Source: Candidatus Wildermuthbacteria bacterium (GTDB lineage Bacteria > Patescibacteriota > Minisyncoccia > Minisyncoccales > PEYH01). Taken from it: DNA of 64,000 nucleotides. This document shows, piece by piece, positions 2,777 through 62,859 of the stretch (its first letter is position 1; every line of letters starts with the position of its first letter). The stretch spans positions 8,767 through 72,766 of the forward strand of contig JBBIKX010000001.1 of the NCBI GenBank assembly GCA_037445205.1, written 5' to 3'. The notes under the pieces are model-generated. The model was not told where the DNA came from, did no database searches, and worked only from the letters and a program-made list of their open reading frames with translations. The translations under genes were made by a program, and so were the position numbers.

Positions 2777-3049
2777 ATGGATTTCAGCTTGATTAAAAGA
2801 ATACTGGCCAAAGAAAAAACAAAAATTGTCATCGTGGAAAACGGCGTACCCACAATGATTATTTCAAGCATTGAAGATTATCTTTCAGGAGAAGAGAAAA
2901 CCGCCAAAGAAAAAATCGGCATGGAAAAAATCGGCATGGAGGAAAAAAAAGAAAGCTTTTTATCCGCTCCCAAGAGAGAAGAAGATGTTTTTTTGCCCAA
3001 AAGCGGGGAATTTACCGAGGAGCTGACTATTGATGATTTGCCTCTTTAG
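2777..3049 (+). CDS. Small hypothetical protein whose N-terminus resembles Phd/YefM-type antitoxin folds
   Basis: 90-aa ORF lying tightly between fusA and tuf. The N-terminus KIVIVENGVPTMIISSIEDY resembles Phd/YefM by eye only. Contains a 15-nt tandem repeat. Confidence 0.5.
   Translation: MDFSLIKRILAKEKTKIVIVENGVPTMIISSIEDYLSGEEKTAKEKIGMEKIGMEEKKESFLSAPKREEDVFLPKSGEFTEELTIDDLPL
2909..2938 (+). repeat. Perfect 15-nt tandem duplication GAAAAAATCGGCATG x2 inside the small ORF
   Basis: Units at 2909-2923 and 2924-2938 are identical and encode (E)KIGM twice. Confidence 0.9.
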
Positions 3050-3094
3050 TGCTATATTCTGTATGAGCGTCACTTGATGATTGATTTCTGTTAT

Positions 3095-3130
3095 CAATCC
3101 TTGGGCGCAAAAAGGATTGACTTTTATTTT
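3095..3130 (+). terminator. Hairpin plus T-rich tract upstream of tuf
   Basis: CAATCCTT(3095-3102) pairs with AAGGATTG(3112-3119), followed by ACTTTTATTTT. Confidence 0.45.
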
Positions 3131-4855: not shown

Positions 4856-5446
4856 ATGCCGTTTATCTTGGGAAAAAAAATTGGGATGGCGCAAGTGTGG
4901 CGGGACAAAAAGGTGGTGCCGGTTACAATTATCGGGGCCGGGCCTTGCGTTGTTACCCAATTAAAAAATCAGCGAAAAGACGGATATCAATCAATACAGA
5001 TCGGCTTTGAGAAAATCACCAAGGAAAAAAAGATTAAAAAAACGCAGAAAAACAAGCCATATAGATGGTTAAGGGAGTTCAAAAAAGATCCGGGCGAATA
5101 TAAGTTGGGCGATGTTCTGGACGTTTCAAGGTTTAAGATTGGAGAGAAAGTAAAGATTTCGGGCATTTCGAAAGGGAAAGGATTCCAGGGAGGAGTAAAA
5201 AGGTGGGGATTCGCGGGAAGGAATGCCACCCATGGAGTAAAGCATGAACATAGAACAATTGGTTCCACGGGGAGTTGTTTGCCCGAAAGAGTGAGAAAAG
5301 GAAAAAAAATGCCCGGCAGAATGGGACAGGACAGGATAACGGTAAAAAATCTGGAGATTATGGAAATTGATCAAGAGAAAAACTTGATTGCCGTCAAAGG
5401 AGCGGTTCCGGGCAGCAAAGATACATTATTAGAAATCAGGAATTAA
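4856..5446 (+). CDS. rplC: 50S ribosomal protein L3
   Basis: Contains the L3 motif FQGGVKRWGF; conserved gene order. Confidence 0.95.
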   Translation: MPFILGKKIGMAQVWRDKKVVPVTIIGAGPCVVTQLKNQRKDGYQSIQIGFEKITKEKKIKKTQKNKPYRWLREFKKDPGEYKLGDVLDVSRFKIGEKVKISGISKGKGFQGGVKRWGFAGRNATHGVKHEHRTIGSTGSCLPERVRKGKKMPGRMGQDRITVKNLEIMEIDQEKNLIAVKGAVPGSKDTLLEIRN

Positions 5447-9325: not shown

Positions 9326-9532
9326 ATGATAAAAACAAAGATAAAAGAATTAAGAAGTAAAAATAAAGAAGATTTAGGTCGGCTGCTTTTAAACTTGCGA
9401 GAAAAGCTAAGGCAATTAAAATTTGATTTGGCTTCGGGGAAAATTAAGAATGTAAGCGAAATAAGAAAAATAAGAAAAGAAATAGCCCAGATTTTGACGG
9501 TTCTTGAAGAACATACGGATCAAAAAGTTTAA
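9326..9532 (+). CDS. rpmC: 50S ribosomal protein L29
   Basis: 68 aa, contains ELRSKNKEDL; conserved gene order. Confidence 0.92.
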   Translation: MIKTKIKELRSKNKEDLGRLLLNLREKLRQLKFDLASGKIKNVSEIRKIRKEIAQILTVLEEHTDQKV

Positions 9533-9553
9533 TAATTTTTACATACAGCCAAT

Positions 9554-38976: not shown

Positions 38977-39050
38977 AGCGGGGTGGACCAGTAGTAGGTC
39001 GCGGGTCTCATAAGCCCGAAGCGTTGGTGCAATTCCAGCCCCCGCTACCA
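38977..39050 (+). tRNA. tRNA-Met(CAT), initiator-like, CCA encoded
   Basis: Folded by hand. Acceptor AGCGGGG/CCCCGCT, anticodon stem CGGGT/GCCCG with three G-C pairs, loop CTCATAA. Close to the E. coli initiator tRNA pattern. Confidence 0.8.
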
Positions 39051-39084: not shown

Positions 39085-39156
39085 GCCGGTGTAGCTCAGT
39101 GGCAGAGCAAACGTTTCATAAGCGTTGGGTCGTTGGTTCAATTCCAACCACCGGCA
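39085..39156 (+). tRNA. tRNA with CAT anticodon (elongator Met or Ile-lysidine); no encoded CCA
   Basis: Acceptor GCCGGTG/CACCGGC, D-stem GCTC/GAGC, loop TTCATAA, T-arm GTTGG-TTCAATT-CCAAC. Confidence 0.85.
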
Positions 39157-39175: not shown

Positions 39176-39250
39176 GGACCCATGGTGTAGCCCGGTTAAC
39201 ACATCTCCCTGTCACGGAGAAGATCAGGGGTTCAAATCCCCTTGGGTCCG
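39176..39250 (+). tRNA. tRNA-Asp(GTC)
   Basis: Acceptor GGACCCA/TGGGTCC, anticodon loop CTGTCAC, T-arm AGGGG-TTCAAAT-CCCCT. Confidence 0.88.
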
Positions 39251-39253
39251 CAA
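39235..39253 (+). repeat. Direct repeat copy 1 (the 3' end of tRNA-Asp), att-like
   Basis: AATCCCCTTGGGTCCGCAA is identical to 40465-40483. Confidence 0.9.
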
Positions 39254-39305
39254 TACGAGATTTGTCAAAGATTCTGTTTCGCAATCAACGCGGAAGTGAC
39301 AATTT

Positions 39306-40373
39306 ATGAAAATTTCTGATTTAAATTTTAGTAATTTCAATAGACAAATTAAATTTTCAATGAAAGCAATACTAAGCGATTTTAAATATTTCTATTTATC
39401 GATTTTTTTCTTTGGAATTCTTTTGTTTTTCATTCCTGAAATTTGTAGCGCTAATTTCCTTATAGGAGGATTTTTTATGTATAGTTTCTCTTTGTTGGCG
39501 CCCGTTATTTTCACGGGCGTTTGGGCCATAGAAGCCTTAACTATCAAGAATAAATTAGGGGGGACGCCACAAAAAGCACTATTTACTGCTTTAGTGGTAA
39601 ATTTGGCCACCAGCCTATCGGGCTTTGTTTTGGTTAAAAAAAACTTCTTGGCGGAATACACCCTATATAACGAATCTCTTACATTAATGATTTTTTTCCT
39701 TCTATCTGTTTTTGTTGAAATGTTAATGTTGCATTTTTGCTATAGAGAAGAATCTTGGCATAAAGTAATTATTGCTAGCTTTTTAATGAATCTGAAATCT
39801 TACTTTTTTTTAGCGTTTTTCTTGATAGGAGATTTTACAATCATAGGCGGGGCTATTATTTTAGTTATTGTCGTCCCCTATTTTTTCACAAAAGCTTTTA
39901 GGATGTTAGCCCCGGACAGAGAGTTTTTAAAATTTTTTAAAATAAGATCAGGCATCTTAATTCATTTCCTTTCCATTGTTCTAATCGGTTTGGTGTTTAT
40001 AGGAACCATAAAGGCGATAGATAAAGCGTTTCTTAAGCAAAGAAGAGAGGTGATAAAAGAGCATGAGGTAATGTCTAACATGCTTCAGATAAGCTCCAAG
40101 GCAGAATTGATCTATGCATACAAAGGAAGTTATGAATCATTAAATTGCGACTATGACGAAGAAATAAAAAGTGCTTGCAAGAATATTGAAAAGAAGACAG
40201 GCGCCAGGCTCACTATTCATACATCTGAAAACAGATATTGCGCCTATATTAAATTAATTTATTCTGAAAAATGGTATTGCGCAGATAATATTTCTGGACT
40301 TATCCCTGGGAAAATTAATATTAATCCCTCTATTTTGGGGTATTGTGATGGTAAGACTTTTATTTGTCCATAA
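39306..40373 (+). CDS. Polytopic membrane protein with a C-terminal type IV pilin-like globular domain
   Basis: 355 aa with about 6 TM helices. The C-terminus then runs hydrophobic helix, MSNMLQISSKAELIYAYKGSYESL, RYCAYIKL, WYCADNISG, with cysteine pairs reminiscent of pilins. Confidence 0.6.
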   Translation: MKISDLNFSNFNRQIKFSMKAILSDFKYFYLSIFFFGILLFFIPEICSANFLIGGFFMYSFSLLAPVIFTGVWAIEALTIKNKLGGTPQKALFTALVVNLATSLSGFVLVKKNFLAEYTLYNESLTLMIFFLLSVFVEMLMLHFCYREESWHKVIIASFLMNLKSYFFLAFFLIGDFTIIGGAIILVIVVPYFFTKAFRMLAPDREFLKFFKIRSGILIHFLSIVLIGLVFIGTIKAIDKAFLKQRREVIKEHEVMSNMLQISSKAELIYAYKGSYESLNCDYDEEIKSACKNIEKKTGARLTIHTSENRYCAYIKLIYSEKWYCADNISGLIPGKININPSILGYCDGKTFICP

Positions 40374-40464
40374 ATATTAGCTTATTTGTAAGAATTAGAT
40401 GTGTTGTCCACAATTTTTTAGAGTAAAAATAATTGATTAATTTTTCCATCGGTATCAGATTATT

Positions 40465-40483
40465 AATCCCCTTGGGTCCGCAA
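40465..40483 (+). repeat. Direct repeat copy 2
   Basis: AATCCCCTTGGGTCCGCAA is identical to 39235-39253. Confidence 0.9.
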
Positions 40484-40505
40484 CGATACAAATTTCTTAC
40501 CTTAA

Positions 40506-40531
40506 AGCCGCGCTCCAGCGTGGCTTTTTTT
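40506..40531 (+). terminator. Rho-independent terminator (probably the original tRNA-cluster terminator)
   Basis: AGCCGCGC(40506-40513) pairs with GCGTGGCT(40518-40525) with one G-U pair, followed by TTTTTTT. Confidence 0.65.
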
Positions 40532-40533
40532 GG

Positions 40534-40589: not shown

Positions 40590-41588
40590 GTGTCTTGCGA
40601 TACAGCCGTTATCGTGAATGTGCAGGCGGGCGCGGGAATGACTCGCTGGAAGTTGGCGCATCTTATGCGCCAGTTAAACCGCATTCTTTCTGTGCCCAAG
40701 AGTTGTGTCTGGCTGACTCGGGAAACCGGCGAGAGCAGCGCCACATCCCTGGCATCTTTTGCCCAAAGCAGAGGGGCCAAAGCAGTGATTGTCTTTGGCG
40801 GAGACGGCACGGTTCATCAGGCAGTAAACGGCCTGAAACTGCCCGATCCTTCAATCTCTGTTGGCATTGTGCCCTGCGGTACGGCCAACGTGGTTGCTTC
40901 CTGCCTTGGAATGCCAAGAAATGTCAAAGCGGCGCTGGAAGTCATAAGGGCCGGAATGACAAGAAAGATCGATCTGGGAATCCTGGAGGGAGATGGCCTT
41001 CCAAGATACGCGGTTTCCACGCTAAGCGTGGGACTTGACGCGATGATAAACGAACTGGCGCATCGTGTTAAGCCCCTGTTTCGGAAATACCATCTGCCAT
41101 CCATCTTGGGCTACATTCCGCCTCTTCTTAGATACACTCTTAATGAAGTTCCGCTCTACGATGTAGCTGTCAAAAAGGATGGATTGGTTTTTTGCGAAAG
41201 GATATCCTTTCTGGCAGTAACAAACACTCCATGGTATGGAGGCGGATTGGTGGACAGAACTGCCAAGCTTGACGACGGGCTGTTTAACATGATATGCGCC
41301 AGAAAGATCAGGTCCCGCGATCTTCCCTGGTGGATGTTTCAGATGTGGCAGGGAAATCACATCTATTATCCCAAGGTTTTTCTGCCCTGCTCTTCGTTTT
41401 CAGGATTAAGCATAAGTTCTGACTTTCCCTTGCCCGCGCAGATTGACGGACAGATTCTGCCCGCCCGGAAGAACATCGCAATCTCTGTCGTTCCCCGCCT
41501 CCTGCAGGTTTTCGCACCTTTGCCCCAACCAGAAAGAACAAAGCATTCTGGTTGGGGTTGTTTTTTTGATATGTCCAGGTTCAGATAG
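40590..41588 (+). CDS. Diacylglycerol-kinase catalytic-domain (YegS/BmrU-type) lipid kinase
   Basis: GTG start 5 nt after GGAGGTG(40578-40584). Contains VIVFGGDGTVHQAVNGL and VGIVPCGTANVVASCLG, hallmarks of the DAGK_cat family. Confidence 0.8.
   Translation: MSCDTAVIVNVQAGAGMTRWKLAHLMRQLNRILSVPKSCVWLTRETGESSATSLASFAQSRGAKAVIVFGGDGTVHQAVNGLKLPDPSISVGIVPCGTANVVASCLGMPRNVKAALEVIRAGMTRKIDLGILEGDGLPRYAVSTLSVGLDAMINELAHRVKPLFRKYHLPSILGYIPPLLRYTLNEVPLYDVAVKKDGLVFCERISFLAVTNTPWYGGGLVDRTAKLDDGLFNMICARKIRSRDLPWWMFQMWQGNHIYYPKVFLPCSSFSGLSISSDFPLPAQIDGQILPARKNIAISVVPRLLQVFAPLPQPERTKHSGWGCFFDMSRFR
41523..41567 (+). terminator. Strong rho-independent terminator lying inside the last codons of the kinase ORF
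   Basis: Perfect 12-bp stem: CCCCAACCAGAA(41523-41534) pairs with TTCTGGTTGGGG(41546-41557), followed by TTGTTTTTTT. Confidence 0.7.
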
Positions 41589-41591
41589 ATA

Positions 41592-41620
41592 TTGACCAAA
41601 ATATTCTTTTATGATATAAT
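41592..41620 (+). promoter_or_regulatory. Near-consensus sigma70 promoter of cassette B2
   Basis: TTGACC(41592-41597), 17-nt spacer, TATAAT(41615-41620). Confidence 0.6.
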
Positions 41621-41647
41621 TTGGATATCCTAAGGAGGTGATGCGTG

Positions 41648-41815
41648 ATGAAGGCGGGTATAGTGATTTTCCGGCATACACAAGTAGAAACGCTGCAGGC
41701 GACGGTTAACGCGTTTCTCAAGGTTCACGCTCCACATATGGAGAACCTTGAGCATCAGCTGGTAGTGACTCCAGACGGCACTATCGTCTTGACCCTGCTT
41801 TATCGGGCTAAGTAG
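41648..41815 (+). CDS. 55-aa soluble protein, unknown family
   Basis: Not in the ORF track (below 60 aa). AAGGAGGTG(41632-41640) lies 7 nt before the ATG. Translates to MKAGIVIFRHTQVETLQATVNAFLKVHAPHMENLEHQLVVTPDGTIVLTLLYRAK-stop. Confidence 0.6.
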   Translation: MKAGIVIFRHTQVETLQATVNAFLKVHAPHMENLEHQLVVTPDGTIVLTLLYRAK

Positions 41816-41837
41816 GGTTCGTAAGGAGGGAGGAACG

Positions 41838-42101
41838 ATGCGTAAGCTCTTTGCGGCGATTGTCGGACTCTACCGTCGGCTCTGGATGATTGAGCCCCGC
41901 CGTTTCAAACGGGGACAAATCATCCAGTTCGAAGACTGGCGCGATGGCATTAGAGTTGCCAAAGCCAGATACCTGGTTCTCGGCAATACACCCTCCGAGA
42001 AGAGGTACGTCCTGGAGGGTGTTGGGCCCGGCAACAAGGGGAGGCGCGAGCGCCTTCGCTTCCGCTGGGTTGACAAACACGCACATTTGGTGCGCGGCTG
42101 A
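41838..42101 (+). CDS. 87-aa basic protein, unknown family
   Basis: AAGGAGG(41823-41829) lies 8 nt before the ATG. The ORF is in the track and is followed by a terminator. Confidence 0.6.
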   Translation: MRKLFAAIVGLYRRLWMIEPRRFKRGQIIQFEDWRDGIRVAKARYLVLGNTPSEKRYVLEGVGPGNKGRRERLRFRWVDKHAHLVRG

Positions 42102-42111
42102 AATGCCTGTT

Positions 42112-42155
42112 CCGCCCGGGACTAAGGAGGAGTTCCGGGCGGTTGTTGTTTTTTG
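42112..42155 (+). terminator. Terminator of cassette B2
   Basis: CCGCCCGG(42112-42119) pairs with CCGGGCGG(42135-42142), followed by TTGTTGTTTTTT. Confidence 0.65.
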
Positions 42156-42204
42156 ATGAAGTTTCTGGTATCGTATCAAGTATCGCACATTGGGAGGTGG
42201 AACG

Positions 42205-42348
42205 GTGCACAAATGGGTAATCTTTGCGGTAGTGGTGATCCCAAGCATTCTCATCGGTTCCCTTATCTGCCTTTTCCAAGGAAAGGGCAGAAGAGTGTGG
42301 TCCTTCGCTAAGGGGAGAGTCTTTGCTTGGGCGGAAACGGATTGGTGA
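42205..42348 (+). CDS. 47-aa single-pass membrane peptide
   Basis: GGAGGT(42194-42199) lies about 5 nt before the GTG at 42205. Translates to (M)HKWVIFAVVVIPSILIGSLICLFQGKGRRVWSFAKGRVFAWAETDW-stop. Not in the ORF track (below 60 aa). Confidence 0.5.
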   Translation: MHKWVIFAVVVIPSILIGSLICLFQGKGRRVWSFAKGRVFAWAETDW

Positions 42349-42371
42349 ACACAATCCTCTTGGCACTTGTT

Positions 42372-42405
42372 AACCGGCGCATCTTCTGATGGGCCGGTTC
42401 ATCTT
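42372..42405 (+). terminator. Hairpin at the right edge of island B
   Basis: AACCGGC(42372-42378) pairs with GCCGGTT(42393-42399), followed by CATCTTTT. The T tract is weak. Confidence 0.4.
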
Positions 42406-42472
42406 TTAACAAAAAATGCTCCATTTTTTGATTTGATTTTTGTTTGTTTTTGAATTAGAATTAATATATAAA

Positions 42473-61983: not shown

Positions 61984-62859
61984 TTATGCTGGTTTATAGA
62001 CACGGTTTACCAGCACTTGGCGGGCAAACGTCACCCTCCATGTCGGGCCTACGAATCCGACTTCCCGGAGCAGTTGTTCCCATTGCGGAATTGCGAGGAA
62101 GGTGTATGTTCCTTCTTTTCCCTTTCTTTGTATTTCAAGGGCGTGACGAAGTATGCTTGTGCCCTGAAGAATTCGGCTAAAATCCCGATTTCTTATGTAG
62201 GGCAGAGGATTGAGCATGTCAGGAAGAGAAGCGACAAACACCCATTGGAAGTGAACGTTTTGTCTGGGAGTAGACCAGACGATATGTCCTCCGGGCTTGA
62301 GCACCCTATGCATCTCTCTGAAAACTTCCCTCATGGCCCTTATGCCTTTTTCGCTTCGAAAGTCAGTTGCATAGGGGATAACTAAATTTGCGATAATTCC
62401 ATCAAAGTGGTTATCGTCGAAGGGAAGTTCTTCGCCAAGATGAGCGAAAACAAGATGCATGGGCAACGTGGGGTGAAGAGATTGCGTTTTCCGCGCCGGA
62501 TCAAGAACTATATCCAGACCAACTACCAATTTGATAGTTCTGCCGGATTTGTTCCATGCCAAGAGAGCCATCTTGGCGGGTCCGCAGCCTACATCCAGCC
62601 AAACTTCGTTAGCTTTGGGCTGGATTAATCCGGCGACTGTCGTTGTAAGGTTGTGGTAGGGTCTTGCCTTTTCCAGGTTTTTGTAAATCCTTGCGTAATC
62701 CCTCCAAAACGCCAACTCTTGTCCCCAAGAGCGGATCCTTCCTCTTGTGAAGGGCGAAAGCCCGTTCTCATTTGCTTCCAGCCACTCTTCTATGCTCTCC
62801 GTGCTTAATCCTTCTCCAAAGCACGGCCCAAGGATCTCTGATATGCTTTTGGTTTTCAT
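61984..62859 (-). CDS. Class I SAM-dependent methyltransferase
   Basis: Motif I LDVGCGPAK, and post-I/II elements (VGLDI, VLKPGGHIVW). AAGGAGGT lies 5 nt upstream of the ATG. Confidence 0.8.
   Translation of the reverse strand: MKTKSISEILGPCFGEGLSTESIEEWLEANENGLSPFTRGRIRSWGQELAFWRDYARIYKNLEKARPYHNLTTTVAGLIQPKANEVWLDVGCGPAKMALLAWNKSGRTIKLVVGLDIVLDPARKTQSLHPTLPMHLVFAHLGEELPFDDNHFDGIIANLVIPYATDFRSEKGIRAMREVFREMHRVLKPGGHIVWSTPRQNVHFQWVFVASLPDMLNPLPYIRNRDFSRILQGTSILRHALEIQRKGKEGTYTFLAIPQWEQLLREVGFVGPTWRVTFARQVLVNRVYKPA

Follow-up and report, generated by a model that had tools for sequence, protein, structure and literature searches.

A probably degenerate large serine recombinase element behind a tRNA-Asp gene of Candidatus Wildermuthbacteria, and the Patescibacteria element family to which it leads

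We analyzed a 64 kb stretch of a Candidatus Wildermuthbacteria contig (the whole stretch is 'the window' hereafter; GC content 0.387) in which a 1.2 kb segment is bracketed by two copies of the 3′ end of a tRNA-Asp gene. Our results support the view that this segment is foreign DNA that entered by site-specific recombination at the tRNA-Asp 3′ end, separating the tRNA from the trailer and terminator that originally followed it. The segment is probably a degenerate islet derived from an element of the large serine recombinase (LSR) type, having lost its recombinase by deletion, and is most likely immobile now. Judging from sequence, the type of recombinase is identifiable – what the window appears to keep is an attL junction and the last ~18 codons of an LSR gene.

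This assignment draws on comparisons with related contigs, which we refer to by L numbers. Immediately behind the first repeat copy, the 15 nucleotides at 39254–39268 (TACGAGATTTGTCAA) are identical at every position to the element end in L014, L015–L018, L021/L022 and L024–L027, and their distance from the tRNA end equals that seen in intact elements. Likeness to this element arm fades by about 39280, DNA similarity between 39269–39305 and the rest of the arm is not significant, and homology to the cargo region of L010 starts at 39295. Overlapping this junction on the minus strand, we identified a tblastn match to the LSR carboxy terminus (39280 to 39227, 78% over 18 amino acids, E=5.6e-4); the tail reads ...ETESLTNLVLRTQGDLNP-stop in the window and ...EAERLTNLVWRAQGDLNP-stop in the intact LSR P0021. 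At the window's syntenic site, L015, L016 and L017 carry an element of this kind (an intact one in L015) with an LSR that is 82% identical to that of L010, in the order hisS-mreB-gatC-gatA-hypothetical gene-tRNAMet-tRNAMet-tRNAAsp, LSR ... pheS-pheT. Finally, the closest homologue of the open reading frame (ORF) inside the segment directly adjoins a 517-amino acid LSR and a tRNA-Asp gene in L010. Taken together, the perfect junction, the recombinase stub, the LSR at the same site in a relative and the cargo homologue beside an LSR point to a degenerate LSR element. The features of the locus are as follows.

38977–39050 and 39085–39156, plus strand: two tRNA-Met(CAT) genes (ARAGORN, Rfam), the upstream part of a conserved cluster
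39176–39250, plus strand: intact tRNA-Asp(GTC) gene, left (B) arm of the attachment site (Rfam, 67.9 bits; 39176–39251 by ARAGORN)
39224–39280, minus strand: putative LSR relic, last ~18 codons and stop (tblastn, translation)
39235–39253, plus strand: repeat copy 1, tRNA-Asp positions 58–73 plus CAA
39254–39280, plus strand: P′ half-site of the LSR element (attL junction)
39306–40373, plus strand: cargo ORF, 355 amino acids, with later possible starts at 39361 and 39477
40374–40464, plus strand: right spacer, 91 nt, of uncertain origin
40465–40483, plus strand: repeat copy 2, the putative displaced original tRNA-Asp 3′ end, contiguous with the ancestral trailer
40481–40498, plus strand: ancestral tRNA-Asp trailer (B′ arm), AACGATACAAATTTC, also found after the L013 tRNA-Asp and the L022 attR
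40504–40533, plus strand: intrinsic terminator of the tRNA cluster

A preliminary description of this DNA had noted that the bracketed segment lacks a recombinase, and our searches agree: none of the ORF translations from the 64 kb looked like a recombinase on inspection by eye, and tblastn with six LSRs against the window matched the 18-codon stub alone. The full antisense LSR gene, the ~85-nt inverted repeats and the internal inverted attP that characterize intact elements are absent from the window.

We defined the intact element family from L010, L014–L018 and L021–L027, reading element ends in tRNA orientation. Intact elements are ~3 kb long and lie at the 3′ end of tRNA-Asp, tRNA-Ser or tRNA-Glu genes. 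At the left end, the tRNA sequence (...CCGC|CA) runs into TACGAGATTTGTCAA (the P′ arm). Antisense to the tRNA, the LSR gene crosses P′ and places its last 10 codons and stop within the tRNA (tail ...ERLTNLVWRAQGDLNP-stop). It is followed by a complete, inverted attP (GAAACGAAATCAGGAATTCTTCTCAAAATAAGTTCGAGCTAATTTCAGAATAT-CCCGCCA-TACGAG...) and, beyond this, by one or two cargo genes; because the internal attP is inverted, the LSR gene is flanked by ~85-nt inverted repeats. At the right end, attR consists of a P arm (...GTTCGAGCTAATTTCAGAATAT), CCCGC and the host trailer. We resolved attL, internal attP and attR in six elements, with the following coordinates.

L014: 407–3358
L015: 6026–9512
L018: 6441–9512
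L022: 657–3649
L023: 3–3808
L024: 137–3105

The only sequence common to attL and attR of intact elements is CCGC(CA), 4–7 nt, which places the crossover within this motif; all ten LSR loci with this P′ arm follow this pattern, and no second long tRNA repeat is present in L014, L015 or L018. A T-loop-like GTTC(G/A)A motif is found 18 nt to the left of CCGC in each tRNA arm and 23 nt to its left in the P arm (read at L015 7840–7885 versus 9513–9545, and also in L014, L018 and L025). Serine integrases are known to have a 5-bp offset between attP and attB half-sites, and the difference in motif spacing matches this offset. The left arm in L022 is tRNA-like, and neither ARAGORN nor Rfam calls a tRNA there.

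The family appears to be widespread. A search with the L010 LSR gave over 7,800 homologues at E<1e-30; those with a named source come from Patescibacteria, and many sit on contigs of 1.7–2 kb, as expected of repeats that break assemblies. Among viral contigs, we found neither the 19-mer that brackets the window segment nor a 17-mer nor the attL/attP core, and a protein-based scan of them returned just two truncated LSR fragments (69% identical).

Three further observations concern these elements. The LSR stop lies inside the tRNA (L015 9513–9542 and 7850–7900), so that the last ~10 residues of the protein depend on the integration state: the tail reads ...LVWRAQGDLNP-stop at the tRNA, and read-through of attP predicts ...LVWRDILKLARTYFEKNS-stop. 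Target tRNA genes end in GCCA when occupied and in GCAA or GCAG when unoccupied, which gives the occupied tRNA an encoded CCA. In L024, a P arm and a variant P′ arm, rather than a tRNA, lie beside the LSR 3′ end (3068–3105), and this element appears to be inserted in the att site of another element.

The cargo retained in the window is compatible with the preliminary description of a single, very AT-rich ORF. The bracketed segment has a GC content of 0.319, within the lowest 0.6% of 1211-nt windows, and contains the one ORF at 39306–40373. Starting at 39477, this ORF would encode 298 amino acids and have a GGAGG ribosome-binding site. Its product combines a multi-helix membrane N-terminal domain with a Cys-rich C-terminal domain of ~110 amino acids, and neither the ORF nor stand-alone copies of its C-terminal domain match a Pfam or NCBIfam family. 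An AlphaFold2 model was unusable (pLDDT 42); that the product is pilin-like is an impression only. Among 5.8 billion proteins, only three are close homologues. The best of them, in L010, is 64% identical and homologous at the DNA level over window positions 39295–40382. A 43%-identical homologue in L012 (1–399, minus strand) adjoins an IS110-family transposase fragment, a second and different mobile context, and the homologues in L011 and L012 lack element-type ends. A profile search with the Cys-rich domain (window 40050–40370, ORF residues ~250–355) gave 466 matches, which include stand-alone ~145-amino acid membrane-anchored proteins and the C-termini of proteins of 400–970 amino acids. Rfam identified nothing in the insert, the spacers or the second foreign block described below except tRNAs.

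The L010 homologue is inverted relative to its tRNA and is flanked by 158-nt inverted repeats (1–158 and 1210–1367, 99% identical), into which the ORF extends with its first 56 nt. The L010 contig also terminates exactly in a third att-like site (positions 1357–1438 and 2910–3000 belong to the same observation). This arrangement could represent an invertible cargo module or a nested element.

Consistent with the preliminary description, the 19-mer AATCCCCTTGGGTCCGCAA that brackets the segment occurs exactly twice in the window (39235–39253 and 40465–40483), with no third copy even when up to three mismatches are allowed. The two copies are identical at 19 of 19 positions; their chance expectation is 0.03, and none of 100 shuffles produced two matches. 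The repeat starts at tRNA position 58 and comprises the last 3 nt of the T-loop, the 3′ strands of the T-stem and the acceptor stem, the discriminator G and three trailer bases. Foreign DNA begins 3 nt past the tRNA-Asp end and leaves the tRNA intact. An independent Logan assembly (L001) has the identical arrangement at 99.99% identity.

On the right-hand side, we recovered the predicted terminator as a 10-pair stem at 40504–40527 followed by a T run. A 'decayed T-arm remnant' that had been proposed to precede copy 2 did not hold up: the likeness comes down to the pentamer ATCAG, one base out of register, and only 3 of 14 ungapped upstream positions match. A search of a metagenome collection for the junction expected of an empty site (T-loop of the tRNA, then the 19-mer and CGATACAA) retrieved a single contig, L013, in which tRNA-Asp is directly followed by CAACGATACAAAATTTTC.... 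The L013 locus thus resembles an empty site (tRNA-Asp, then CAACGATACAAAA), and the trailer at the L022 attR is the same module. Because this trailer is common to the L013 tRNA-Asp and the L022 attR, copy 2, the trailer and the terminator read as the original downstream end of the tRNA-Asp locus, displaced by 1230 bp. An unoccupied site is found in distant relatives only: L013 has the tRNA-Asp with the same trailer, and L003 has pheS within about 0.2 kb of tRNA-Asp.

As a separate observation, the trailer forms part of a ~40-nt hairpin, CCGCAACG(A)TACAAAATTT...AAATTTTTACGTTGC (window 40477–40498, L013 4946–4987, L022 623–661), which is kept behind tRNA-Asp or attR in distant relatives despite different neighbouring genes.

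These results suggest the following history. An element of the LSR family would have integrated at the window's tRNA-Asp, and a deletion of ~1.7 kb – the simplest reading of the LSR loss – would then have removed the LSR gene and the internal attP. We infer that mobility was lost as well. What remained would be the attL junction, the ~18-codon LSR stub and the gene for a membrane protein with a Cys-rich outer domain, while the second 19-mer, with trailer and terminator, would be the displaced original end of the tRNA-Asp locus.

Several observations weigh against this history. Intact elements have no long direct tRNA repeat, and their canonical 4–7 nt reaction leaves the 19-mer pair unexplained. 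The right end of the window segment has CCGC and the host trailer but no clear P arm, and 13 tRNA-derived bases occupy the place where a P arm should abut CCGC. The window attL reads CCGCAA where the family has CCGCCA. L013 is distant (its gatA is 56% identical) and is not an empty site of the same species. No intact progenitor was found in which a 19-nt repeat goes together with the window's cargo and P′ arm. Finally, L004, L007 and L009 lack the ORF and nevertheless carry a second tRNA-Asp 3′ copy 92–140 nt downstream. On this last point the preliminary description, which had expected the 19-mer not to be scattered and relatives without the ORF to lack the second copy, fares unevenly: the pair is unique in the window, but such relatives do have second copies.

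The right spacer does little to clarify these points. Its similarity to the canonical P arm is weak (empirical p 0.03–0.07; shuffle tests not significant), as is its similarity to the mini-inserts of L009 and L004 (p 0.02–0.06).

Since intact elements share 4–7 nt only, the 19-nt repeat is not the canonical footprint of the LSR. The earlier interpretation as a classic tRNA 3′-end integration footprint is supported as regards a foreign, site-specific insertion, for which the junction, the LSR stub and the trailer speak, and fails in taking the 19-bp repeat for the recombinase's mark. In the window, L004, L007 and L009, the left edges of the duplicated segment fall within the same four T-loop bases. 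These second copies and their shared edge point to a second, T-loop-type site-specific process at tRNA-Asp.

Three observations concern partial tRNA copies and contig ends in relatives. Between tRNA-Asp and the second 19-mer, L007 (62–153, minus strand) carries GCCGGTTCGAGCCCGGTCGTCCCCGCT, the 3′ half of another tRNA-Asp allele, which is close to the tRNA-Asp of L025 and resembles an acceptor/T-arm minihelix. L004 holds three partial tRNA-Asp 3′ copies within 145 nt (5085–5229), one of them a decayed attL-like CCCCCTTGGGGTGCGAGATT, which suggests repeated integrations. Three of the eight genome contigs with the 19-mer stop 9–73 nt beyond it (19-mer at L002 10–28, L005 74–92, L007 43–61), which fits strain-variable, assembly-breaking DNA behind tRNA-Asp.

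As to how the repeat arose, we lean towards a two-step route, at somewhat under even chances: an older integration with a T-loop crossover would have moved the old 3′ end away from the tRNA, as seen in L004, L007 and L009, and an LSR element would then have entered at the new tRNA end and decayed. If so, the same cargo should be found ending in GCTAATTTCAGAATATCCCGC. A variant element that brought the repeat in one event is rather less likely, and other routes, which include homology-facilitated illegitimate recombination, make up the rest. That the two att sites derive from one event is not established.

The strongest rival to the degenerate LSR element is such a single event, which we regard as possible yet on balance doubtful. 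Here attP itself would have carried the 19-nt tRNA-Asp 3′ end, crossover would have occurred in the T-loop, and the two 19-mers would be attL and attR; the recombinase, since deleted, might have been a tyrosine integrase or else a T-loop-type relative of the canonical LSR. The full identity of the copies agrees with this, and the element's own tRNA copy would encode the LSR tail. There is also a precedent in the ssrA islands of Dehalococcoides, in which a CcrB-like LSR lies on the reverse strand beside attL and overlaps the RNA gene at its 3′ end, and a 20-bp repeat starts mid-T-loop (McMurdie et al. 2011, PMC3146451). These islands, 10–30 kb long with a six-gene integration module (DsiB, DsiA, RecF-like, ParB-like and Mom-like proteins, among others), form tandem arrays and sit at a hotspot that also holds remnants without an integration module (PMC3146451). 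The window repeat is likewise ~20 bp and starts in the T-loop (tRNA position 58), and the Patescibacteria LSR is likewise antisense at attL with its 3′ end in the RNA gene, at a hotspot with remnants. The islands differ in targeting tmRNA rather than tRNA-Asp and in having module genes that are absent from the window; the Patescibacteria elements are ~3 kb, carry the LSR alone with an internal inverted attP, and cross over at CCGC near the acceptor end with a 4–7 nt repeat. This last point counts against a single event, since all ten LSR loci with this P′ arm cross over in CCGC. Moreover, the exact 19-mer, missing from viral contigs, never lies beside an LSR in species-representative genomes, and the sequence to the left of copy 2 is not convincingly a B arm or a P arm. 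Under a single event, AATCCCCTTGGGTCCGCMATACGAGATTTGTCAA would be expected in an excised or internal attP.

Relationships to other recombinases and islands are looser. The family LSR scores best against CcrA, CcrB and XisF models (E 1e-23 to 1e-26), but at 92 bits versus cut-offs of 700–900, so it is no Ccr or XisF ortholog; the recombinases of staphylococcal cassette chromosomes and XisF also target orfX/rlmH or fdxN rather than tRNA ends. In streamlined Prochlorococcus genomes, tycheposons and tRNA-flanked islands bring cargo to tRNA genes; partial tRNA copies mark old integrations there, integrase-less degenerate remnants persist in islands, and a minority use LSRs (Hackl et al., bioRxiv 10.1101/2020.12.28.424599). 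The window insert is similarly an integrase-less remnant at a tRNA with a partial tRNA copy, whereas tycheposons mostly use tyrosine recombinases, have replication genes, are larger and belong to another phylum. In kind, then, the window insert is already known, from islands that target tRNA or tmRNA genes, with partial copies of these genes and remnants devoid of an integrase; the Patescibacteria family is set apart by its very small size, an LSR flanked by ~85-nt inverted repeats, acceptor-end crossover, an encoded CCA and single cargo genes.

Cis-mobilizable elements (CIMEs) have att-type repeats around DNA without recombination genes and are thought to derive from autonomous elements by deletion. 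Such elements, from integrative and conjugative or integrative and mobilizable elements of streptococci, are reviewed in PMC5704250. The window segment is also flanked by repeats and lacks a recombination gene, but CIMEs have two functional tyrosine-integrase att sites and are mobilized in trans; the window's left site looks intact in sequence, and its right site is not a recognisable attR. A still-mobile, non-autonomous cassette of this sort, with a complete P′ half-site and a target repeat and excised or inserted in trans by an LSR whose gene lies at another place in the genome or in the community, is improbable. It would fit with the retained P′ (~23–27 nt, 15 of them perfect and everything beyond gone), which is about the length of an LSR half-site, with the extreme abundance of LSR homologues in the phylum and with the inversion of the cargo family between two P arms in L010. 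The right end, however, has no P arm, which an attL x attR excision would need; sequence scans found no second copy, no circle junction (which would read ...CAGATTATT-AATCCCCTTGGGTCCGCAA-TACGAGATTTG) and no same-species empty allele; and the cargo homologues in L011 and L012 do without such ends.

We give equally little credence to a broader form of this proposal, in which the insert and the 92–140 nt mini-inserts of L004, L007 and L009 are not dead scars but working parts of a cassette system at Patescibacteria tRNA ends. LSR-less units, each a P′ half-site with a partial target copy, would be captured, inverted and exchanged in trans by the abundant LSR family. The result would be a serine-recombinase counterpart to integron cassettes or shufflons, by which ultra-small genomes reshuffle single genes for surface proteins. 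An integron cassette as such was considered for the segment and rejected.

More improbable still is transformation with homology-facilitated illegitimate recombination, which would have duplicated the 19 nt without a site-specific enzyme. Donor DNA with a tRNA-Asp and a decayed LSR element would have recombined homologously through the tRNA cluster on the left and joined illegitimately in the recipient's T-loop on the right. This would account for an attL-type left end with a non-canonical right end, and the tRNA cluster is a good homologous anchor, but random joins would not be expected to share a left edge within the same 4-nt T-loop stretch at four independent loci (the window, L004, L007 and L009).

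Insertion sequences typically leave target duplications of 2–14 bp. A chance match, an assembly artefact or a transposon target-site duplication, for which nothing speaks beyond the bare existence of the repeat, is scarcely credible and was rejected, given the shuffling result, the same structure in the second, independent assembly, and – for a transposon – the lack of terminal inverted repeats and transposase, an ORF without a family match and a repeat longer than such duplications.

The tRNA-Asp locus lies in a conserved neighbourhood. The Met-Met-Asp tRNA cluster 3′ of gatA also occurs in L002, L003, L005, L007, L008, L013 and L015, and the order hisS-mreB-gatC-gatA-small protein-tRNAMet-tRNAMet-tRNAAsp ... 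pheS-pheT recurs in L003, L004, L008, L009, L013 and L015. Between tRNA-Asp and pheS, these six loci and the window have intervals of 0.1–4 kb with differing genes, including the following.

L003: about 0.2 kb
L008: 0.9 kb, phosphoribosyltransferase
L004: 2.4 kb, hemerythrin-like gene, pyrF and pyrE
L009: 4 kb, transporters
L013: radical S-adenosylmethionine (SAM) gene after tRNA-Asp; pheS is not on its 6.6 kb contig
Window: 3.2 kb
Window 40590–42420, plus strand: second foreign block in the same interval, GC content 0.51

The second foreign block comprises a YegS/diacylglycerol-kinase-like gene (40590–41588) and three small ORFs that start near 41648, 41838 and 42205 and have GGAGG ribosome-binding sites, and it ends in a terminator-like hairpin near 42381–42410; we saw no att-like repeats associated with it. 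The variable interval in relatives, together with this block, bears out the proposal of a compound insertion hotspot. Elsewhere in the window, a SAM-methyltransferase-like gene (61984–62859, minus strand) has a GC content of 0.49 against a background of 0.39 and may be another acquired gene.

By itself, the feature seen in the window is unremarkable, a degenerate islet at a tRNA gene; its value lies in leading to the element family. This family is very common in Patescibacteria and apparently undescribed: in the literature searched, we found no description of ~3 kb LSR elements at tRNA ends in this phylum. Its members are integrative elements of ~3 kb with fully readable att sites that carry one or two genes, and they illustrate cleanly, in a natural setting, the 5-bp offset between attP and attB half-sites. 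Their compact LSRs, with known attB and attP, are of practical interest as integration tools. Two of the cargo genes, the window ORF and a pilin-like transglutaminase in L015, look from their sequences like surface-protein genes, and the elements could explain part of the strain-level gene flux and of the contig breaks beside tRNA genes in these reduced genomes.

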